Shown: positions 9,403 through 54,537 of the stretch, piece after piece
Position numbering within the stretch: the stretch's first letter is position 1
Layout of the letters: each line of letters starts with the position of its first letter
Sequence record: MW630116.1
Reading direction: 5' to 3' (one strand)
Source: Escherichia phage vB_EcoM-ZQ3
DNA: 64,000 nucleotides
Made by a program: the position numbers and the translations under genes
The notes under the pieces: model-generated
Databases searched by the model: none
What the model was told of the DNA's origin: nothing
What the model saw: only the letters and a program-made list of their open reading frames with translations

Positions 9403-11207
9403 TATGCAATCCTTACCCAACGGTATACAGTTATAGATGGCTGAATATTAGTTATAGAACGCGCTGGAACATGAGATCCATTAGTCTTTGCATAGTCTTC
9501 ACGATATTTAGTGTAAATAGGACCTTCTTCATCTGGGTCATATTGGCAACCGCCTATAATTACTGTACCATTATCATCAGAAATAAGAACCTTTTCGTCG
9601 GTTTGTGTAGCTGGTAAATCAGCATTTTCTAATGTGATGGTTGTTACACCAACGGTACCACCTGCGGTATGAGTAGGGTTACCATTGACGTCAAGGTCAT
9701 TATTATTTAATGCAAAATTAGGATCCGACGCGTCGTCATTCCAACCTGCTAATACTTTGCCTTGTCCCCAAATTTTCCACGAACCAAAACCTAAATAAGT
9801 TGCCGGATTATTAGGGTTAACCGCATTTTCGTAAATAGTCCCAACAGGATAAATTGTATCAAATATTGCTGAGATAGTCGAGAATTCACGTTCATACTTA
9901 GGAACAGGTTCTACATTAGGCCATCCAATTTTATCGAAATCGGTTAATGCAACGTCACCAGTAATTTCAACGTTAGACCCTTGAGAAACATATTTCTCAT
10001 CAGCGACATCAAGGATTTCTTCCATTTCAAGAAGAGTTCCTAAATCGTTATTAAACCATGTGATGGTAATAATGTCTTGGTCTTCAAATTGACGGTCAAA
10101 CAGAATTGCGCTAGGGATATTATCAGTATATTCAATCGCATAATCTGTGTACGATTGAGTCCATGTCCCACCGAGATTAGCGCATGACTCTTCAGAATCG
10201 GCATCCACACCTTCGCAACGGAAAATAGGAGTTCCAACAGTACCAGCTAATTCTTGGAGAATACCGTTGAAGCGAACTTCTAACGAATTAGGGTTAGGTG
10301 GTTCCGTAGGATTAATACCAAATGCTGTAAATGGAATAGACCGGAACGTACTCAAATCAGTGACGTAAATACTTCCATCAATAGACTTTTTAGCAGTCAA
10401 TTTACTATCTAAAATGCGAACTTGGCGACGAGTATATGAACTACGCCACTGAGAAACACCATCTAGGAATGTCTCAATTTGTACAGTGTCCCCAACATTA
10501 CATGGTTGGCGTAATCTAATATTAAATCCATCAAGTGCAACCAGTTCACCAGGATTAGCGCCTGGAGAACCAAAATCACTATTATCACTGAATACATCAC
10601 CATAATACAATTCGTTGCCACGATGTTTTACACGAATGTTGTTAACGTTATAAGAAGTCCCGTTAAAAACATCCATGAAATCGGTCTGACCTTGTGTTTC
10701 AACCAGATATTCTCTACGAGCAACATTACTAATGTCAGAGCTAACTATTTTATCAATTTGTTTGTTCTTGATGTATTCCCAACGTCCAGGAGCACAATAA
10801 ACTAATTCTAAATCAGAGAACTGAACGTTAATTTCTACCGGAGATGAAGAACCTTTAATAGTGTCTCCGTTTGCCGGAATTAAAGTAACAGGGTTAATGT
10901 TCCAAGTTGCAAATACGTCACGAGCACGAATAACTTTATTATAGTCTGCAATTGTCCCTTTAGGAAGATTTACCGAAACTCGTCCAGAAGTAGTATTAAT
11001 TGCATAAGATTTACCCCAAGCGGCATTAAGATTAAGACCATCAGCCGCATCATAAGTCTTCCATGCGCCAGCGGAATAAGGAACTTCACCATCACCTAAT
11101 TCATAATAGATTTCGTCAAAGTTCTCATTTATTTTTTCACCACCTCGACGAAGGTAATCGCCTTGTCCGTCATCAACGACGTTACCAATTTTAATATTTT
11201 GTTTCAT
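9402..11207 (-). CDS. 10: Baseplate wedge protein gp10
   Basis: 601 aa; near-identical to T4 gp10. Confidence 0.9.
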
Positions 11208-30349: not shown

Positions 30350-30853
30350 ATGAGTCTTTACACTGAACTGAATAAAAAATCTGAAGAATCCGCTGAAACT
30401 ATTTTTAAAAACGTGCAAAAGCGTATTTTAGAAAAGATGTATAACACTGCAGCTAAAGGTGAAAAATCTTGCCGGTTTCCGATGAGGTGTTCTTCCGATT
30501 TATGCGCAAATACTATTGAATGGCTGGAAAGTGAAGGTCTTACGGTAGAGAAAAACCCGGCGTCTTCTATTGACAGTGAATCATATATTAGTATTTCTTG
30601 GGATAAATCAAGGGTAGAAGAGAAAGATGGTGATTGGGTTGTAGATGTTAAAACTTCTGATGGCGGACGTTCTGTTGAAGTTTCAGCTGTAGTTAAAGGT
30701 ACCCACGAACAAAGGACTTGGGGTTGGGGTGGTGAAGAAAAAGAAATTGTTCTTAGTGTGATTGCCAGGTCAACTAGTAATAAAATTGCACAAAGCATCA
30801 TTGACGCTGCAATTGCTGAAGCAGAAAAAATTTGCAAAATTAAAAATAAATGA
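30350..30853 (+). CDS. Hypothetical protein
   Basis: 167 aa; promoter cassette upstream. Confidence 0.5.
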   Translation: MSLYTELNKKSEESAETIFKNVQKRILEKMYNTAAKGEKSCRFPMRCSSDLCANTIEWLESEGLTVEKNPASSIDSESYISISWDKSRVEEKDGDWVVDVKTSDGGRSVEVSAVVKGTHEQRTWGWGGEEKEIVLSVIARSTSNKIAQSIIDAAIAEAEKICKIKNK

Positions 30854-30911
30854 TGTACAAACGCCAAGGACGGTGTTACTATAGACCTATCAACTACAGA
30901 GGAGAAACAAA

Positions 30912-48648: not shown

Positions 48649-48767
48649 ATGTGGGGACCTTCGGGTCCCTTTAGGGGGTTAAAATATTTTTAAAAAAGTA
48701 GTGTACATGCTTTTAGGATATGTTATTATAGACCTATCGAAACGAAATGAGTAAATTGGAGAATAAA

Positions 48768-49748
48768 ATGTTCAACGTTCAAATCAAAAAAGGTATCTAT
48801 CGTAATAACGAAATCTCTGGTTCTTATGTCGCCACAAAGACATGGTTCCCGGCAAAGCTTAATCCTGAATGTTCCCACTTAGGTGATGGTAAAATTTTCG
48901 TTATGATTGATGGTTCTGAACGTGGAGTATGGGTCTTCAAATCAGACATCGTAATGGAAGGAGTTGAGACATCACCAGTTGCAGTTGTTGAAAGCACTGA
49001 AGATATGAAAACTCGTATCAACAAACGCTTTAAAGTAATGAACATGATGACGAATGGCATTATCGATGGCAAAATTCGTTCACTCATTATTTCAGGTGCA
49101 GCTGGTATTGGTAAGACGTATTCTCTGGATAAAGCACTTAATAATGCTAATGATAATGGTTTCATCAAATACAAAAGCATTAATGGTAAAATCTCTGGTA
49201 TTGGCCTTTACGAACAACTTTGGCTCAACCGTGATGCAGACAGCGTTCTCTTAATCGACGACGTTGACGTATTCTCGGATATGGACATCTTGAACCTTCT
49301 TAAAGCAGCATTAGATACTGGAGATAAACGCAAAGTTTGCTGGAGCACTGCGTCATCTTATCTCGATGATAAGGGTATTGATAAAGAATTTGAGTTTGAA
49401 GGTACTATCGTTTTCATTACAAACGTTGATATCGATAAAGAGTTAGAACGCGGTTCGAAGCTTGCCCCACACCTTCAAGCTTTAGTATCTCGTTCAGTGT
49501 ATCTCGACCTTGGAGTACACTCTAATGAAGAGATTATGGTTCGAGTTGAAGATGTAATATTATCTACTGACATGATGCAGAAACGTGGTCTGACAGATGC
49601 AGAAACGTATAAAGCATTGTCCTGGATGAAGGCCAACGTATCTCGTCTTCGCAATGTATCATTACGTACGGCTCTTTATGTAGCAGATTTTATTTCAACT
49701 GATAAAGATGGTTGGGAAGAAATCTCTGAAGTAACTTTACTGAAATAA
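48768..49748 (+). CDS. AAA+/P-loop ATPase with about 100-aa N-terminal domain
   Basis: Walker A ISGAAGIGKT, Walker B VLLIDDVD; start placed at the second ATG of an ATGAGT...GGAG...ATG leader. Confidence 0.6.
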   Translation: MFNVQIKKGIYRNNEISGSYVATKTWFPAKLNPECSHLGDGKIFVMIDGSERGVWVFKSDIVMEGVETSPVAVVESTEDMKTRINKRFKVMNMMTNGIIDGKIRSLIISGAAGIGKTYSLDKALNNANDNGFIKYKSINGKISGIGLYEQLWLNRDADSVLLIDDVDVFSDMDILNLLKAALDTGDKRKVCWSTASSYLDDKGIDKEFEFEGTIVFITNVDIDKELERGSKLAPHLQALVSRSVYLDLGVHSNEEIMVRVEDVILSTDMMQKRGLTDAETYKALSWMKANVSRLRNVSLRTALYVADFISTDKDGWEEISEVTLLK

Positions 49749-49886: not shown

Positions 49887-50174
49887 ATGGATTTTATGCA
49901 AAAAATTAAAGCCGCAGTCGAACTGTATGCTCATCGTATGGTTAGTTCTACGATGCAATACAGCGAGGAGGTTCGCCAGGACTCTTCCTTGAAAGGAAAA
50001 ACTAAAGCCTTAATTACCTTAGACCGTCTACAAAAGAATGCCCTAGAGTTGTTACAGTACGACAAGGATGCATATAAGAAAGAACAGGAAGAGAAACTTA
50101 AATCTGAAAAATTACAAAAAATCCCGAAATCGGTTTGGTTCAGCGGAAAAAATACCGAAAAAAGTTTCTTTTAG
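49887..50174 (+). CDS. Hypothetical protein
   Basis: 95 aa; AGAGGA RBS; overlapping alternative frame 49786..49992 is less likely. Confidence 0.45.
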   Translation: MDFMQKIKAAVELYAHRMVSSTMQYSEEVRQDSSLKGKTKALITLDRLQKNALELLQYDKDAYKKEQEEKLKSEKLQKIPKSVWFSGKNTEKSFF

Positions 50175-50232
50175 TTGTTTACAAGGTCTATGGTTGTGTT
50201 ATTATAGACCTATCAACTACTGGAGGTAAAAC

Positions 50233-50673: not shown

Positions 50674-50822
50674 CGTATTGCAAACTATACAAAACAGAAA
50701 TCAGAACGTATTAGTACTCTTCGGAAATTTGAAGAACGTTTAAAGACGGTTCACGCATAAACGCTTTACCCAAGGACGGGTTATAATGGTTTTGAGTTCC
50801 AATTCAATCTGAGGAAATAGTT

Positions 50823-51818
50823 ATGAGCATTACATCTGATGCGGTAAAACATGAAATTAACGGTTTATGTGCTTCACAGATTAAAGTGTGGTTTAAAGAC
50901 CATAATGATCGCAGAGCACTTAATTATGAGCAAATTGCTATCCAAGTTCATCAATTACTGACTAGTAAATTTGATTTTCATATGCCGTCTGAAATCTATA
51001 CTAATCTACCGCGAGCGCTTATTAAAGCGTGTAAAGGTTACGGAAAATCAATGGCCGATGGAATCTTCAGCGCGCTGAATAAACTTAACGTTCTGTCGAT
51101 GATTAACTCTAACAACATCCTGCGTAATCTAGGACGTACTGATTTGTTCGGTCGGGAACAGTGTAAAATGCCTTTGAAATGGATTGTTGCTCATCTTAAC
51201 GAGAACCAAACACGTTTTATGGCCGTATCAGCACGCTTACAAATGGGCCTAGATCGTCAGATGAACTTTAAAACTCATCCACGTTATTCAGGTTCAACTG
51301 TCTTTTATAAATGTGAGCTTCAAAAGGTCGGTGGCAAAACTGTCTTAGTAGTTCGTGTAACGTTTGAAGGACGACGTCAAGGATATTTTGACCTAATCGG
51401 CTCTGGTCTTAAACATTGTGGATTTATTGACGAAGTTGATATCAAGCGAGACGGCATTGGATACCGTATTGGATATGTTTGTACTCTTAAAGAAGAGATT
51501 TCAGGACCAGCACCAGGACTAAAAGACGTTAGATATAAAGACGAGCTCGTTGAAGAAATAAAAGAAGTTGAATATGATATCAACCAAGAAGATGCTCTTA
51601 AAGACCTTATTGATGAACTGAACCAAGACGTTATTCCGGTTCAGAAATTTGAATCAAAACATGCTGAGCAAATCAAATACTTTGAAGCTTTGATTAACGA
51701 ACTTAATGTAACTATTCAACAGACTGACGATGAAATCTCACGATTAGCAGGCTTAAACGGTAAAAATAAAACAGAACGAGCTAATCTTATTCAGGTAGTA
51801 AAACTTCTTAAGGAATGA
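50823..51818 (+). CDS. Hypothetical protein with C-terminal coiled coil
   Basis: 331 aa; promoter at about 50770. Confidence 0.5.
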   Translation: MSITSDAVKHEINGLCASQIKVWFKDHNDRRALNYEQIAIQVHQLLTSKFDFHMPSEIYTNLPRALIKACKGYGKSMADGIFSALNKLNVLSMINSNNILRNLGRTDLFGREQCKMPLKWIVAHLNENQTRFMAVSARLQMGLDRQMNFKTHPRYSGSTVFYKCELQKVGGKTVLVVRVTFEGRRQGYFDLIGSGLKHCGFIDEVDIKRDGIGYRIGYVCTLKEEISGPAPGLKDVRYKDELVEEIKEVEYDINQEDALKDLIDELNQDVIPVQKFESKHAEQIKYFEALINELNVTIQQTDDEISRLAGLNGKNKTERANLIQVVKLLKE

Positions 51819-51873
51819 TGTACAACCAAGGATGGTTGGAGTATAATAAATTTTTCAACATGAGGAATATAAA

Positions 51874-52806
51874 ATGGCTTTTATTACACGTAGAGAACTT
51901 ATCAAAGAATTTACCTCGAACGCATATACTCCAGGACCTAATCCTATCCGTATGCCTGTAAAGACTCCTGAAGAGATTGAGGAAATCTGTTCATATTATG
52001 GGATTACTTCTCGTAAGTTTACTCAATTTGAATGCGTTACTAACACACCCGTTAAAGAGTTCATTAAAAATGGCGAGTTCAGCCGTTTATTAGCCAAACA
52101 GAAACTTCGTAATTTTTGTATTGGCGGTGAAGGACAATATTTCGCTAAGCAGTTCCGGAATAACCTTAACAATCTGATGGCCATTGCTTCTCGTATTCGT
52201 CCTCAAGCAATTAACATGAAACATTTGAAATATACTTACGATAAGTTGGAAATCATGGTTATCAGTGAGAATGAGTTCACTCTTACGTATAAACCTAAGA
52301 ATGATAACGTTGCTCGTGTATTCCACCAAGCGTTGGAAGTGTTAGGTGATAATATTCACCAGATTAAAGCAATTTATTCTCGTGAGCTTAATATTATCGA
52401 CCCTATCAAGAATAAGGGCCATATCGCTATCCAGGCTCGTGTATCTATTGGTAAAAAGGTTCCTGCACCATGGTGGCACAAAGACTCTGAATACTATCAA
52501 AATCTTAAAAAGGAAAATGCAACGTTCGAAGCGTCAATTATTGTCGCCCCGACTATCGGTAAGATTAATTCAGCTTCAGCACAACCTGTTATGTTTAACG
52601 GCACACCGTCGACTAAACTGGAAATCTCTAACGGTCTTCTTCCTGCCGAAGATTACTATTATAATCAAATCAAAGCCACTGCGGACCAACTGTCTGATGA
52701 ACTTGACAAAGCACAAGCTAAGCTTCGTGATGCTCAACAAGTAGTTACCAAGCTCCAGTTGCAGTACTCTAAACTTTTTAACGCAATGAATGCATTAAAA
52801 TCATAA
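51874..52806 (+). CDS. Hypothetical protein with C-terminal coiled coil
   Basis: 310 aa; promoter cassette ccaaggatggttggagtataat upstream. Confidence 0.5.
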   Translation: MAFITRRELIKEFTSNAYTPGPNPIRMPVKTPEEIEEICSYYGITSRKFTQFECVTNTPVKEFIKNGEFSRLLAKQKLRNFCIGGEGQYFAKQFRNNLNNLMAIASRIRPQAINMKHLKYTYDKLEIMVISENEFTLTYKPKNDNVARVFHQALEVLGDNIHQIKAIYSRELNIIDPIKNKGHIAIQARVSIGKKVPAPWWHKDSEYYQNLKKENATFEASIIVAPTIGKINSASAQPVMFNGTPSTKLEISNGLLPAEDYYYNQIKATADQLSDELDKAQAKLRDAQQVVTKLQLQYSKLFNAMNALKS

Positions 52807-52868
52807 ATCAGTTTACAACCAAGGATGGTTGGAGTATAATGAATCTATCTTAACGAGAGGAAAATATT

Positions 52869-53819
52869 ATGACACGTTCACATTATGTTGATTATTTTGC
52901 AGGTCTTATCGCTAACGTTCATGCCCAACGTGCTTCTGGTTCATTAGGATTTGATGTTCCACACCGAGTTGTAGTAAGTGGTATTCTTCGCGATTTTGGT
53001 ACATACACAGGCCAAGAAAATCATATCTGTAAAGATACTCAGAATGCGTATTCTCATTCATTAGGGACACTGCTTCAATGGTTCAAACGTTCTCGTTTAT
53101 TATCTTCTACTGTAGCTCGCGATAACATTAAAAACTTTATGAAGCCGAGCTTTATTAAATCTGTGACATCTAAAACCGATTTGGTTGAATTTACTATTAT
53201 TAACGATGTTAAAAAGACTCATTTGGCTGATTGGTTATCTACCATTCCTGAAACTAAATTTGCTGATAAATTTGCTTGTGAATTCAATAACCAAGTGAAT
53301 ATGCTTTTTAAACATTCACGTAAATTATTCACAGGCGGCGACGGTCGTACAAATAAAGTTCATGTTAAAGATTGGGTTACTGCAGTATTCAAACCAACTG
53401 GTAATTGTAACGCATCATTGTCAATTGATATCCAGGTTCCTTATTACTACTCACGTAATCTCGGTACCATGAAAGCTGAAGAAATTAATAAGCATAACAA
53501 AACCGTTCGTTCGTTGTCTTATAAACTTATTACATTGTTAGAGACTATGGATGTTGTTGAAACGTTCGACGAATCCGAAGATAACGGTTCAATGTTATAC
53601 AGTTCTCGTACCCGAATTAAGCTGAAGAACCCTAATATGTATAAACCTAAGCTTATTAAAGAACCTAAAGCAGAAAAGGTTGATATCATGGCTGAAGAAC
53701 GTGAATACCTCAAATCTCGTCTGAAAGAAGTCGAAGCCCAGATTGCAGAACAAACTAAATCGTTAAAAGCTCTGAATGCGAAAGCGGACGGTTTACGAAA
53801 TGCCATTGAGGTTTTATAA
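52869..53819 (+). CDS. Hypothetical protein with C-terminal coiled coil
   Basis: 316 aa; near-identical promoter cassette upstream. Confidence 0.5.
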   Translation: MTRSHYVDYFAGLIANVHAQRASGSLGFDVPHRVVVSGILRDFGTYTGQENHICKDTQNAYSHSLGTLLQWFKRSRLLSSTVARDNIKNFMKPSFIKSVTSKTDLVEFTIINDVKKTHLADWLSTIPETKFADKFACEFNNQVNMLFKHSRKLFTGGDGRTNKVHVKDWVTAVFKPTGNCNASLSIDIQVPYYYSRNLGTMKAEEINKHNKTVRSLSYKLITLLETMDVVETFDESEDNGSMLYSSRTRIKLKNPNMYKPKLIKEPKAEKVDIMAEEREYLKSRLKEVEAQIAEQTKSLKALNAKADGLRNAIEVL

Positions 53820-54124
53820 TGAAACTACGTCTTTTAGAGGATATTGATATGAGCACTAATCACGGCTTGGTTAAGTTTATTGACGATAGTTCAAAGATTG
53901 AATTTGTTCAGCGAGATAAAATCCACGGTGAAGAAGAGTTCGTTCCTCCGGCATGGAACGAAATCATGAAAATGGTTGAACGACGTGAAAATGCTGCCAA
54001 ATCGGCAGCAAAACATCCATGCCCGGAATGTGGAACTATCCAAGTCCAACTGGTTAACTGGACCACTGATAACTTGAAATTGAAATGCCGTAAATGCTTC
54101 CACAAATTTGAGAGAACATTATAA
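53819..54124 (+). CDS. Hypothetical protein with C-terminal zinc ribbon
   Basis: CPECG...CRKC; 101 aa. Confidence 0.5.
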   Translation: MKLRLLEDIDMSTNHGLVKFIDDSSKIEFVQRDKIHGEEEFVPPAWNEIMKMVERRENAAKSAAKHPCPECGTIQVQLVNWTTDNLKLKCRKCFHKFERTL

Positions 54125-54537
54125 TGAGATATAGCCTTCGTTTGTTTATTGCAGCTTTAGTTTTTGCCATCATTCCATTCATTTGGAACAGCCAGAATAC
54201 TTACATGGAAACTAAAGTAATTCCTGTGGAGGTAGTGGAATTAATCTCAGGTCAATCTACAGGAAAATATTCTAAATTGGAATTTATTGCAGTTTATAAA
54301 GATGAACAAGGTCGAGTTTTTGACAGGCGTGTATCGCCATCGTTTTATACGCTTCTGAATAAAGGTGATACGATAGCTATAGAAATTCGTGAGATGGATA
54401 TCAAACAAACTACTAAAGATAACTTGATTTGGTTCTTTGGTACAGTGTTGTTGGTTTCTATCTGTATCACAGGTTTTATTACATGTATTGTATTTGGTGT
54501 TGCATATTTAATCGATGAAAGGAAAAATAATGTTTAA
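54124..54537 (+). CDS. Predicted membrane protein
   Basis: 137 aa; N- and C-terminal hydrophobic helices. Confidence 0.5.
   Translation: MRYSLRLFIAALVFAIIPFIWNSQNTYMETKVIPVEVVELISGQSTGKYSKLEFIAVYKDEQGRVFDRRVSPSFYTLLNKGDTIAIEIREMDIKQTTKDNLIWFFGTVLLVSICITGFITCIVFGVAYLIDERKNNV

Follow-up and report, generated by a model that had tools for sequence, protein, structure and literature searches.

The locus considered here raises a simple question: do three consecutive genes of similar length, the products of which show no obvious similarity to each other, have a common origin, and what might they do for the phage that carries them? The genes, referred to below as A, B, and C, lie in a 64,000-nucleotide (nt) stretch of DNA from Escherichia phage vB_EcoM-ZQ3 (sequence record MW630116.1; this entire stretch is called the window), which comes from a Mosigvirus-type T-even (T4-like) phage. 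The segment from 50700 to 53900 is 97% identical to Shigella phage phi25-307 (Mosigvirus), at least 80% of it is present in 131 phage records, and the gene order of the window corresponds to that of T4 from nrdC.8 to nrdC. A, B, and C proved to be diverged tandem paralogs, members of a single superfamily that also includes the T4 genes nrdC.3, nrdC.4, nrdC.5, and nrdC.6. The best explanation of the locus as a whole, to which we assign a probability of roughly 0.7, combines these tandem paralogs with a promoter-flanked B cassette and a counter-defense role early in infection. As stated in the preliminary description, the three open reading frames (ORFs) are consecutive; all have the same orientation:

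50823..51818, plus strand: gene A, 331 amino acids (aa), the nrdC.6 counterpart by position and sequence; phrog_2257
51874..52806, plus strand: gene B, 310 aa, Pfam family DUF7235 (PF23882), the nrdC.5 counterpart; phrog_2351
52869..53819, plus strand: gene C, 316 aa, the ortholog of T4 nrdC.3; phrog_1435

These correspondences with T4 were established by BLASTP and synteny. No counterpart of T4 nrdC.4 was detected in the window by BLASTP or tblastn, and no further paralogs of the family were found elsewhere in its 64 kb, which leaves three family genes compared to four in T4.

The preliminary description had noted the absence of obvious sequence identity, and pairwise BLASTP among A, B, and C indeed returned nothing significant. 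This result, the placement of the three proteins in separate PHROGs and Pfam families, and the ease with which coiled coils produce spurious profile matches would all suit three unrelated proteins with independent coiled-coil tails, whose promoters resemble each other only through the general T4 early consensus. Such a reading is very improbable and already largely refuted, in the first place by profile comparisons. Single-gene searches (a word-indexed search with A gave 4 near-identical proteins, and a related-loci search with B gave 2 loci) were too shallow for building profiles, so mixed-family alignments were used. The pairwise profile alignment proposed earlier as a check links all three pairs in HHalign at 93 to 96%: A against the nrdC.3/nrdC.4 families (C/D) at 94.8% (E 5e-8, 119 columns), B against C/D at 96.3% (E 1.8e-9, 269 columns, essentially the full length), and A against B at 92.8% (E 3.9e-7), with the A and C/D profiles including bridging single-copy sequences. 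The signal survives removal of the last 65 residues, after which HHalign gives 92.7% over 176 columns for A versus C/D and 75% for B versus C/D.

The T4 proteins nrdC.3 and nrdC.4 align end to end, belong to the same Pfam family (PF26897), and have in common the motifs MTR..Y..F, FK.SRLLS, GD.R, and L..A..LK. In a mixed alignment of all families, these motifs can be recognized by eye in A and B as well, as in the aligned segments LNKLNVLSMINSNNILRNLG, FIKNGEFSRLLAKQKLRNFC, and FKRSRLLSSTVARDNIKNF and in the pattern F...F..N......A.R(L/I). When 1.84 billion protein representatives were searched with the mixed alignment, only 16 matched, and all members that were traced came from Straboviridae or Marfavirus phages. 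Within the reach of these searches, the superfamily thus appears only in T4-like phages, that is, in Straboviridae and the related Marfavirus. The bridging sequences are found among these 16 matches and include P0110, from Klebsiella Marfavirus-type phages, P0113, and P0115, to which related proteins of Kanagawavirus and Edwardsiella phages are about 50% identical. In phmmer searches, P0110 matched B (1e-7), C (1e-5), nrdC.4 (1e-4), and P0115 (1e-9), and P0115 matched the A/nrdC.6 family with values of 1e-4 to 1e-7; most of these links persist with the last 65 residues removed. Strict-family hidden Markov models (HMMs), which contained no bridging sequence, were run against a database of 157 sequences that included 152 decoy ORFs from the window. 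The protein gp085 of Kanagawavirus IME523 was recognized by the models of the A family (3e-7), the B family (7e-9), and the C/D family (2.5e-4), and gp080 of Marfavirus Marfa was recognized by the B (1.7e-13) and C/D (2.3e-13) models but not by the A model (E > 1). The decoys scored at least 0.36, at least 0.23, and at least 0.07 with the A, B, and C/D models, respectively.

AlphaFold2 (AF2) models were built for A and B, both from the same mixed superfamily alignment, with the following order of elements and mean predicted local distance difference test (pLDDT) values:

Model of A, mean pLDDT 70.4: N-terminal helices, residues 3-137; beta-beta-alpha-beta-beta unit, 162-221; disordered linker, 226-257; C-terminal helix, 278-330
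Model of B, mean pLDDT 73.5: N-terminal helices, residues 6-115; beta-beta-alpha-beta-beta unit, 125-192; disordered linker, 222-252; C-terminal helix, 257-309

The conserved motifs fall on corresponding helices of the two models. Three unrelated folds had been named in advance as the outcome that would speak against a common origin; the models of A and B have the same topology. The architecture predicted for the superfamily starts with a helical region at the N terminus, continues with a beta-beta-alpha-beta-beta sandwich and a disordered linker, and closes with a C-terminal amphipathic helix. This helix spans about 50 residues and ends in the conserved L..A..LK. The significant neighbors of both models in BFVD, whose models were made independently of the superfamily alignment used here, are proteins of roughly 200 to 380 residues (most of about 300), and almost all of them belong to T4-like phages, which come from many different hosts. 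Two of these neighbors are common to A and B, namely, a protein of phage IME523 (A0A7G3KGN9; A 4e-10, B 1e-7) and a protein of Pectobacterium phage PM2 (A0A0A0PZG4; A 4e-9, B 5e-5); a further match of the A model is a Yersinia phage protein of 308 aa, probably an nrdC.3. The matching topologies and common structural neighbors are further arguments against three unrelated proteins.

Two other BFVD entries have consecutive UniProt accessions, E5EYP0, which matches the model of A (1.4e-6), and E5EYP1, which matches that of B (5.7e-4). They may be adjacent paralogs that arose by an independent tandem expansion in another phage.

Several results weigh against the common origin of A, B, and C. With profiles that exclude the bridging sequences, HHalign gives 60% (E 8e-5) for B versus C+D, 10% (E 3e-3) for A versus the nrdC.4 family, and no signal for A versus B; given these weak direct signals, the link to A rests on transitive homology through the single-copy genes. 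Some of the similarity comes from the coiled-coil tail, a type of sequence that readily gives matches through its composition. Confidence in the models is moderate (pLDDT 70 to 74, predicted template modeling score 0.53 to 0.55), and the mixed alignment from which both were made could favor similar topologies. Finally, the Foldseek template modeling scores (TM-scores) to the structural neighbors are low, 0.2 to 0.5, which would fit a globular part and a helix joined by a flexible linker.

One HHalign match between B and C (87%) was out of register and was rejected as spurious. It was caused by a fusion protein, P0075, in the C alignment, and that sequence was removed. P0075, a 299-aa metagenomic (Logan) protein, is a natural in-frame nrdC.5::nrdC.3 fusion: its residues 1 to 129 are about 97% identical to residues 145 to 273 of nrdC.5 from phage Shfl2, and the remainder matches nrdC.3 from about residue 134 to the end, the two parts meeting at a short FN..VN microhomology. 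This makeup (cf. L001:3744-6810) points to a deletion that removed the tail of nrdC.5, the entire nrdC.4, and the head of nrdC.3.

The arrangement of the locus in other phages suggests how the three genes arose. On the 3′ side of A-B-C, the recognizable T4 genes are an nrdC.2-like gene, the nrdC thioredoxin, and endonuclease VII; the first of these directly overlaps C:

53819..54124, plus strand: gene for an nrdC.2-like zinc-ribbon protein of 101 aa, with an ATG that overlaps the C stop codon

The overlap of nrdC.2 with a superfamily member is also kept in T4, IME523, and Marfa, and the nrdC.2-like neighbor marks the ancestral position of the family. IME523 and Marfa each have a single family member directly upstream of, and overlapping, the nrdC.2 homolog, which is the same arrangement as that of C and nrdC.2 in the window and of nrdC.3 and nrdC.2 in T4. 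In the window, T4, Shfl2, phi25-307, FL31, IME523, and Marfa alike, family members occupy the interval from nrdC.8 to nrdC.2. The simplest reading is that one ancestral gene upstream of nrdC.2 gave rise to three or four tandem copies in the Tequatrovirus/Mosigvirus lineage. The HHalign links of all pairs, the bridging single-copy genes, and the matching topologies of the A and B models therefore support the proposal of diverged paralogs made in the preliminary description; the syntenic position of the bridging genes would not be expected of unrelated proteins.

The individual copies differ in how far they have moved from their T4-type counterparts. A is 29 to 32% identical to nrdC.6 of T4 and Shfl2 (BLASTP E of 1e-32 to the full-length Shfl2 protein) and is longer by about 35 to 55 residues; its close homologs carry Pfam PF26899 in precomputed annotation. 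B is 23% identical to T4 NrdC.5 (BLASTP E 1e-8) and matches PF23882 with 374 bits (E 8e-112; residues 15 to 309, profile positions 1 to 307), against a gathering score of 30 bits and a score of 420.6 bits (E 5e-126) for T4 NrdC.5 itself. Since T4 nrdC.3 reaches 11.6 bits in the tail only and A and C do not match this profile, only B was assigned to DUF7235. C is 57% identical to T4 nrdC.3 and 75% identical to that of Shfl2, and its homologs carry PF26897, the family that also includes nrdC.4. The flanking genes nrdC.8 and nrdC.10 are 86% and 79% identical, respectively, between the window and T4-type phages, so that by these comparisons A, B, and C have diverged far more than their surroundings.

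Two anomalies were seen in other phages. The T4 reference sequence (NC_000866) has, at about 10070 to 10140 in nrdC.6, a 1-nt deletion relative to Shfl2 (gagctg-atat versus gagctgaatat; cf. L001:3600-3735) that shifts the frame, so that the product has 275 aa instead of 296 aa (Shfl2) and loses the conserved C-terminal helix, the tail still being encoded in another frame of the downstream DNA; the deletion is either a laboratory-strain mutation or a sequencing error. In NrdC.5 of RB69 (P0103, 300 aa), about 60 unrelated C-terminal residues replace the coiled-coil tail; they look like the result of a frameshift, and the RB69 copy of B may be inactivated.

The promoters of the block link its second and third genes in another way. 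Each of the three genes had been credited with a similar promoter of its own, with a sequence common to 51822 and 52810. The 22-mer CCAAGGATGGTTGGAGTATAAT occurs exactly twice in the 64 kb (0 expected), at 51826 and 52819; the repeat itself is thus real, and the coordinates given earlier were a few bases off. The repeat extends to 27 of 27 identical nt (51821-51847 versus 52814-52840) and to 92% identity over 36 nt. The promoter-like sites are as follows:

51821..51856, plus strand: promoter repeat copy 1, 36 nt, predicted early-type promoter of gene B; exact core 51821-51847
52814..52849, plus strand: promoter repeat copy 2, 36 nt, predicted early-type promoter of gene C; exact core 52814-52840
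50763..50787, plus strand: promoter-like site of gene A, consisting of GCTTTA, 13 nt containing CCAAGGACGG, and TATAAT

In copy 1, the -35 element TGTACA (51819-51824) is separated by a 17-nt spacer from the -10 element TATAAT (51842-51847), and the two hexamers together agree with the consensus in 10 of 12 positions; copy 2, with TTTACA (52812-52817), the same spacer length, and TATAAT (52835-52840), agrees with the sigma-70 consensus in 11 of 12. The T4/PST-type early promoter consensus is TTTACW-N17-TAYWAT (PMC4122927). The pattern TTTAC-N17/18-TAYWAT was found at 13 sites in the window, all on the plus strand, versus 1.2 expected. The spacers of the other sites are unrelated; the identity of the B and C promoters thus goes well beyond the class consensus. 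The difference in spacer from the other 12 early-promoter matches is thus another point against unrelated genes with generic early promoters. The promoters that precede nrdC.3 and nrdC.4 in T4 also contain the motif CCAAGGATGG.

The two copies form direct repeats 993 bp apart that flank gene B, and this arrangement coincides with a difference in gene content among relatives. In 21 related phage records, B is missing and A and C are joined by an uninterrupted junction; in FL31, where it was read base by base, the 57-nt junction begins with the left flank of copy 1, passes through the core common to both copies, and ends with the right flank of copy 2. The modular cassette considered in the preliminary description is supported by these 21 B-less records and by the FL31 junction, a precise promoter hybrid. 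B-type genes are present in about 132 records and A-type genes in about 154, and even among relatives from one study, AV114 lacks B and AV117 has it. The absence of B is known from this comparison; the putative mechanism is homologous recombination between the 27- to 36-nt promoter repeats, which would delete or exchange B as a cassette. Promoter-flanked gene exchange and modular shuffling are known in the hyperplastic regions of T4-type phages (PMC2839356, PMC4122927).

The same repeats could mean that B was acquired horizontally, as a cassette inserted or swapped between promoters that became identical through the insertion or through gene conversion. The 23% identity of B to its T4-type counterpart, compared to 79 to 86% for the flanking genes, the existence of distinct B allele classes (about 97% and about 88% identity, with an indel) in phages whose C genes are 92 to 97% identical, and the documented promoter-flanked exchange just mentioned all speak for such an event. 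However, in T4-type phages, the place between nrdC.6 and nrdC.3/4 is likewise taken by a DUF7235 gene, nrdC.5, so a copy there predates the split of the genera, and the B-less junction is what a simple deletion between the repeats would produce. Acquisition as the origin of B is quite unlikely. The deletion and insertion views are compatible, since both accommodate a replacement of alleles by way of these repeats.

The paralogs with their proposed B cassette have a close parallel in the PeSL (promoter-early stem-loop) cassettes described by Arbiol et al. in 2010 (PMC2839356) and Comeau et al. in 2014 (PMC4122927). The B/C repeats are like these in being repeated early promoters of a hyperplastic region that flank variable ORFs, and in both systems, recombination between copies would explain a difference in gene content between close relatives. 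The terminator stem-loop that defines the PeSLs has no convincing equivalent in the B/C repeats. A spacer hairpin, CAACCA-AGGA-TGGTTG, was considered as a PeSL-type terminator and rejected, as it folds no better than shuffled sequences (z of -1.05 and -0.60), and a terminator scan of the plus strand from 50.7 to 53.9 kb found no terminator-like sites; the folds of the intergenic segments likewise did not surpass those of shuffled sequences. In the absence of such a stem-loop, we refer to the repeats as PeSL-like in behavior and not as PeSLs.

The site upstream of A is of a different type. The MotA box of middle promoters has the consensus (a/t)(a/t)(a/t)TGCTT(t/c)A and is located about 11 to 13 bp upstream of a -10 element TAnnnT, with no usable -35 element. 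The A site, aaaCGCTTTA followed by 13 nt and TATAAT (50760-50787), is one core base off this consensus (C for T), and its geometry suggests a MotA-box middle promoter (Mot boxes are described in PMC4122927), not an early one, a class predicted from the consensus. The pattern GCTTYA-N11-13-TANNNT was found 17 times in the window, versus 5.5 expected, and a homologous site precedes T4 nrdC.7. Only CCAAGGAYGG and TATAAT are common to the A site and the B/C promoters; accordingly, the claim of similar promoters holds fully for B and C and only partly, given the middle-type geometry, for A.

Some further features of these promoters were observed. The A site (50763-50787), when compared to 52811-52840, resembles an early promoter with a spacer about 6 to 7 nt shorter (GCTTTACC-CAAGGACGG-GTTATAAT versus GTTTACAACCAAGGATGGTTGGAGTATAAT), and T4 nrdC.7 is preceded by the same short form, which suggests that early and middle promoters of the block may be related by spacer indels. 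The promoter at 52811-52849 looks like a hybrid in which the promoter of T4 nrdC.4 (GTTTAC...) passes into that of T4 nrdC.3 (...CCAAGGATGGCTCGGAGTATAA), the product to be expected if recombination between the two had deleted nrdC.4. A second family of promoter repeats, also of the early type, is located at 48697-48738, 50173-50214, and 30852-30895 and has a conserved downstream block (GTTATTATAGACCTATC / TACTATAGACCTATCAACTAC). The copies at 48697 and 50173 are 1,476 bp apart and flank the genes from nrdC.10 to nrdC.9, and the spacer of the copy at 30852 also holds CCAAGGACGG; this family could represent further recombination cassettes.

The heptad-rich C-terminal segment that had been noticed in all three proteins was confirmed by heptad scores that exceed those of shuffled sequences in the tails only and by the uninterrupted 53-residue AF2 helices of A and B. 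With a crude score that compares the best 28-residue window of each protein to 300 shuffles, the best windows were residues 282 to 309 in A (z 3.1, reached by 1 of 300 shuffles), 268 to 295 in B (z 4.3, 0 of 300), and 280 to 307 in C (z 4.0, 0 of 300); the neighboring AAA ATPase, used as a control, has no such window. The tails show heptad periodicity over at least four heptads, the length expected of a coiled coil, and in A and B this stretch falls within the predicted helix. The segments are located as follows:

51654..51812, plus strand: long helix of A, residues 278-330, predicted by AF2; heptad patterned and ending in L..(V/A)..LLK
52642..52800, plus strand: long helix of B, residues 257-309, predicted by AF2 with pLDDT 82-93
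53691..53816, plus strand: heptad-rich segment of C, residues about 275-316, from the heptad score; aligned with the B helix in HHalign

A search of the PDB with the superfamily profile returned only nonsignificant matches, which were coiled coils (APC, GCN4, and Fos) on the C-terminal segment.

The function of the three proteins can be approached through the B family, for which a phenotype has already been published: plasmid-borne T4 nrdC.5 restores the plating of a T4 deletion clone on ECOR17 Dsr1 cells (PMC9391042). T4 NrdC.5 is similar to B in its DUF7235 assignment, its position between nrdC.6- and nrdC.3-type genes, its length class, and its tail motif (...SKL.NA.NAL). They differ in that T4 NrdC.5 is anti-Dsr1 by experiment, whereas B is known here from its sequence; A and C are related to it only at the superfamily level. 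We found no paper on the mechanism or the relatives of T4 NrdC.5. The T4 proteins nrdC.3 and nrdC.4 (PF26897) and nrdC.6 (PF26899), of which C is an ortholog and A a syntenic counterpart, are uncharacterized early proteins. Two other genes of the same 49-nrdC block, likewise in the early direction, accessory, and variably present, encode inhibitors of defense systems: nrdC.1 inhibits Septu (bioRxiv 10.1101/2025.11.20.689424) and gp49.2 inhibits OLD (PMC13096335), but unlike A, B, and C, these are small, unrelated proteins. No homolog of nrdC.1 was detected in the window by tblastn, and PADLOC models gave no meaningful match. The nrdC.1-6 block can be removed from T4 with viability kept (PMC9825161).

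The NrdC.5 family, the counter-defense neighbors, the dispensability of the block, the early-type promoters, the variable presence, and the fast divergence together suggest that A, B, and C are likely early accessory counter-defense proteins with different targets. Each copy, with its own promoter-like site (middle-type for A, early-type for B and C), would be made early in infection; the variable globular part would recognize an immune protein of the host, and the conserved C-terminal helix would oligomerize the protein or dock it to a common partner. By analogy with T4 NrdC.5, the most likely target of B is a Dsr1-type SIR2 NADase, and A and C are probably directed at other targets. The same paralogs might instead be host-takeover or regulatory proteins, acting through a dimerization-type alpha/beta domain and a coiled coil, for example, on the host RNA polymerase or another host machine; this is an unlikely alternative. 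The explanation as a whole also has points on the other side: at only 23% identity to T4 NrdC.5, B may have a different target; for A, C, and this allele of B, the role is extrapolated from their relatives; the activity and class of the promoters are predicted from the consensus only; and the tail is a predicted amphipathic helix that might form a coiled coil or might instead pack on a partner.

Two neighboring genes deserve mention. A homolog of the membrane protein nrdC.7 (41 to 44% identity) is found at 54124-54537, between nrdC.2 and nrdC; in T4, the order is different, with nrdC.7 upstream of nrdC.6. The nrdC.10 homolog at 48747-49748 (333 aa; the 79% identity given above is to Shfl2 nrdC.10) contains the Walker A motif GAAGIGKT and has weak matches to AAA/STAND NTPases and a weak C-terminal match to HTH_37.

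The genes A, B, and C are known from more than 100 GenBank phages as hypothetical or mislabeled genes. In many records, they and their neighbors are annotated as “thioredoxin,” and none of the three has a thioredoxin-type Pfam match, even at E <= 1; the locus names nrdC.x are the apparent source of this label. To this the present analysis makes modest additions: the unification of these genes into one superfamily, its ancestral state as a single copy beside nrdC.2, and the exact deletion junction at the promoter repeats. Four sets of “hypothetical proteins” (nrdC.3 to nrdC.6), often mislabeled, become candidates for counter-defense screens, and mutagenesis can be guided by the distinction between the variable parts and the conserved ones, namely, the C-terminal helix and the pair of helices around F..F..N....K.A.RL. 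Mosigviruses that naturally have or lack B, such as AV117 and AV114, are near-isogenic pairs in which effects on host range can be sought, and the promoter-to-promoter junction is a clean natural case of promoter-mediated cassette loss in the hyperplastic regions of T-even phages. Somewhat speculatively, the nrdC.3-6 superfamily might be a dedicated, fast-diversifying immune-evasion array, in which a conserved C-terminal helix with the near-invariant L..A..LK at its end would give all copies a common means of oligomerization or docking, the fast-evolving globular heads would be directed against different defense proteins, including Dsr1-type SIR2 NADases, and the identical promoters, besides driving expression, would double as recombination sites for expanding, deleting, and swapping the copies.

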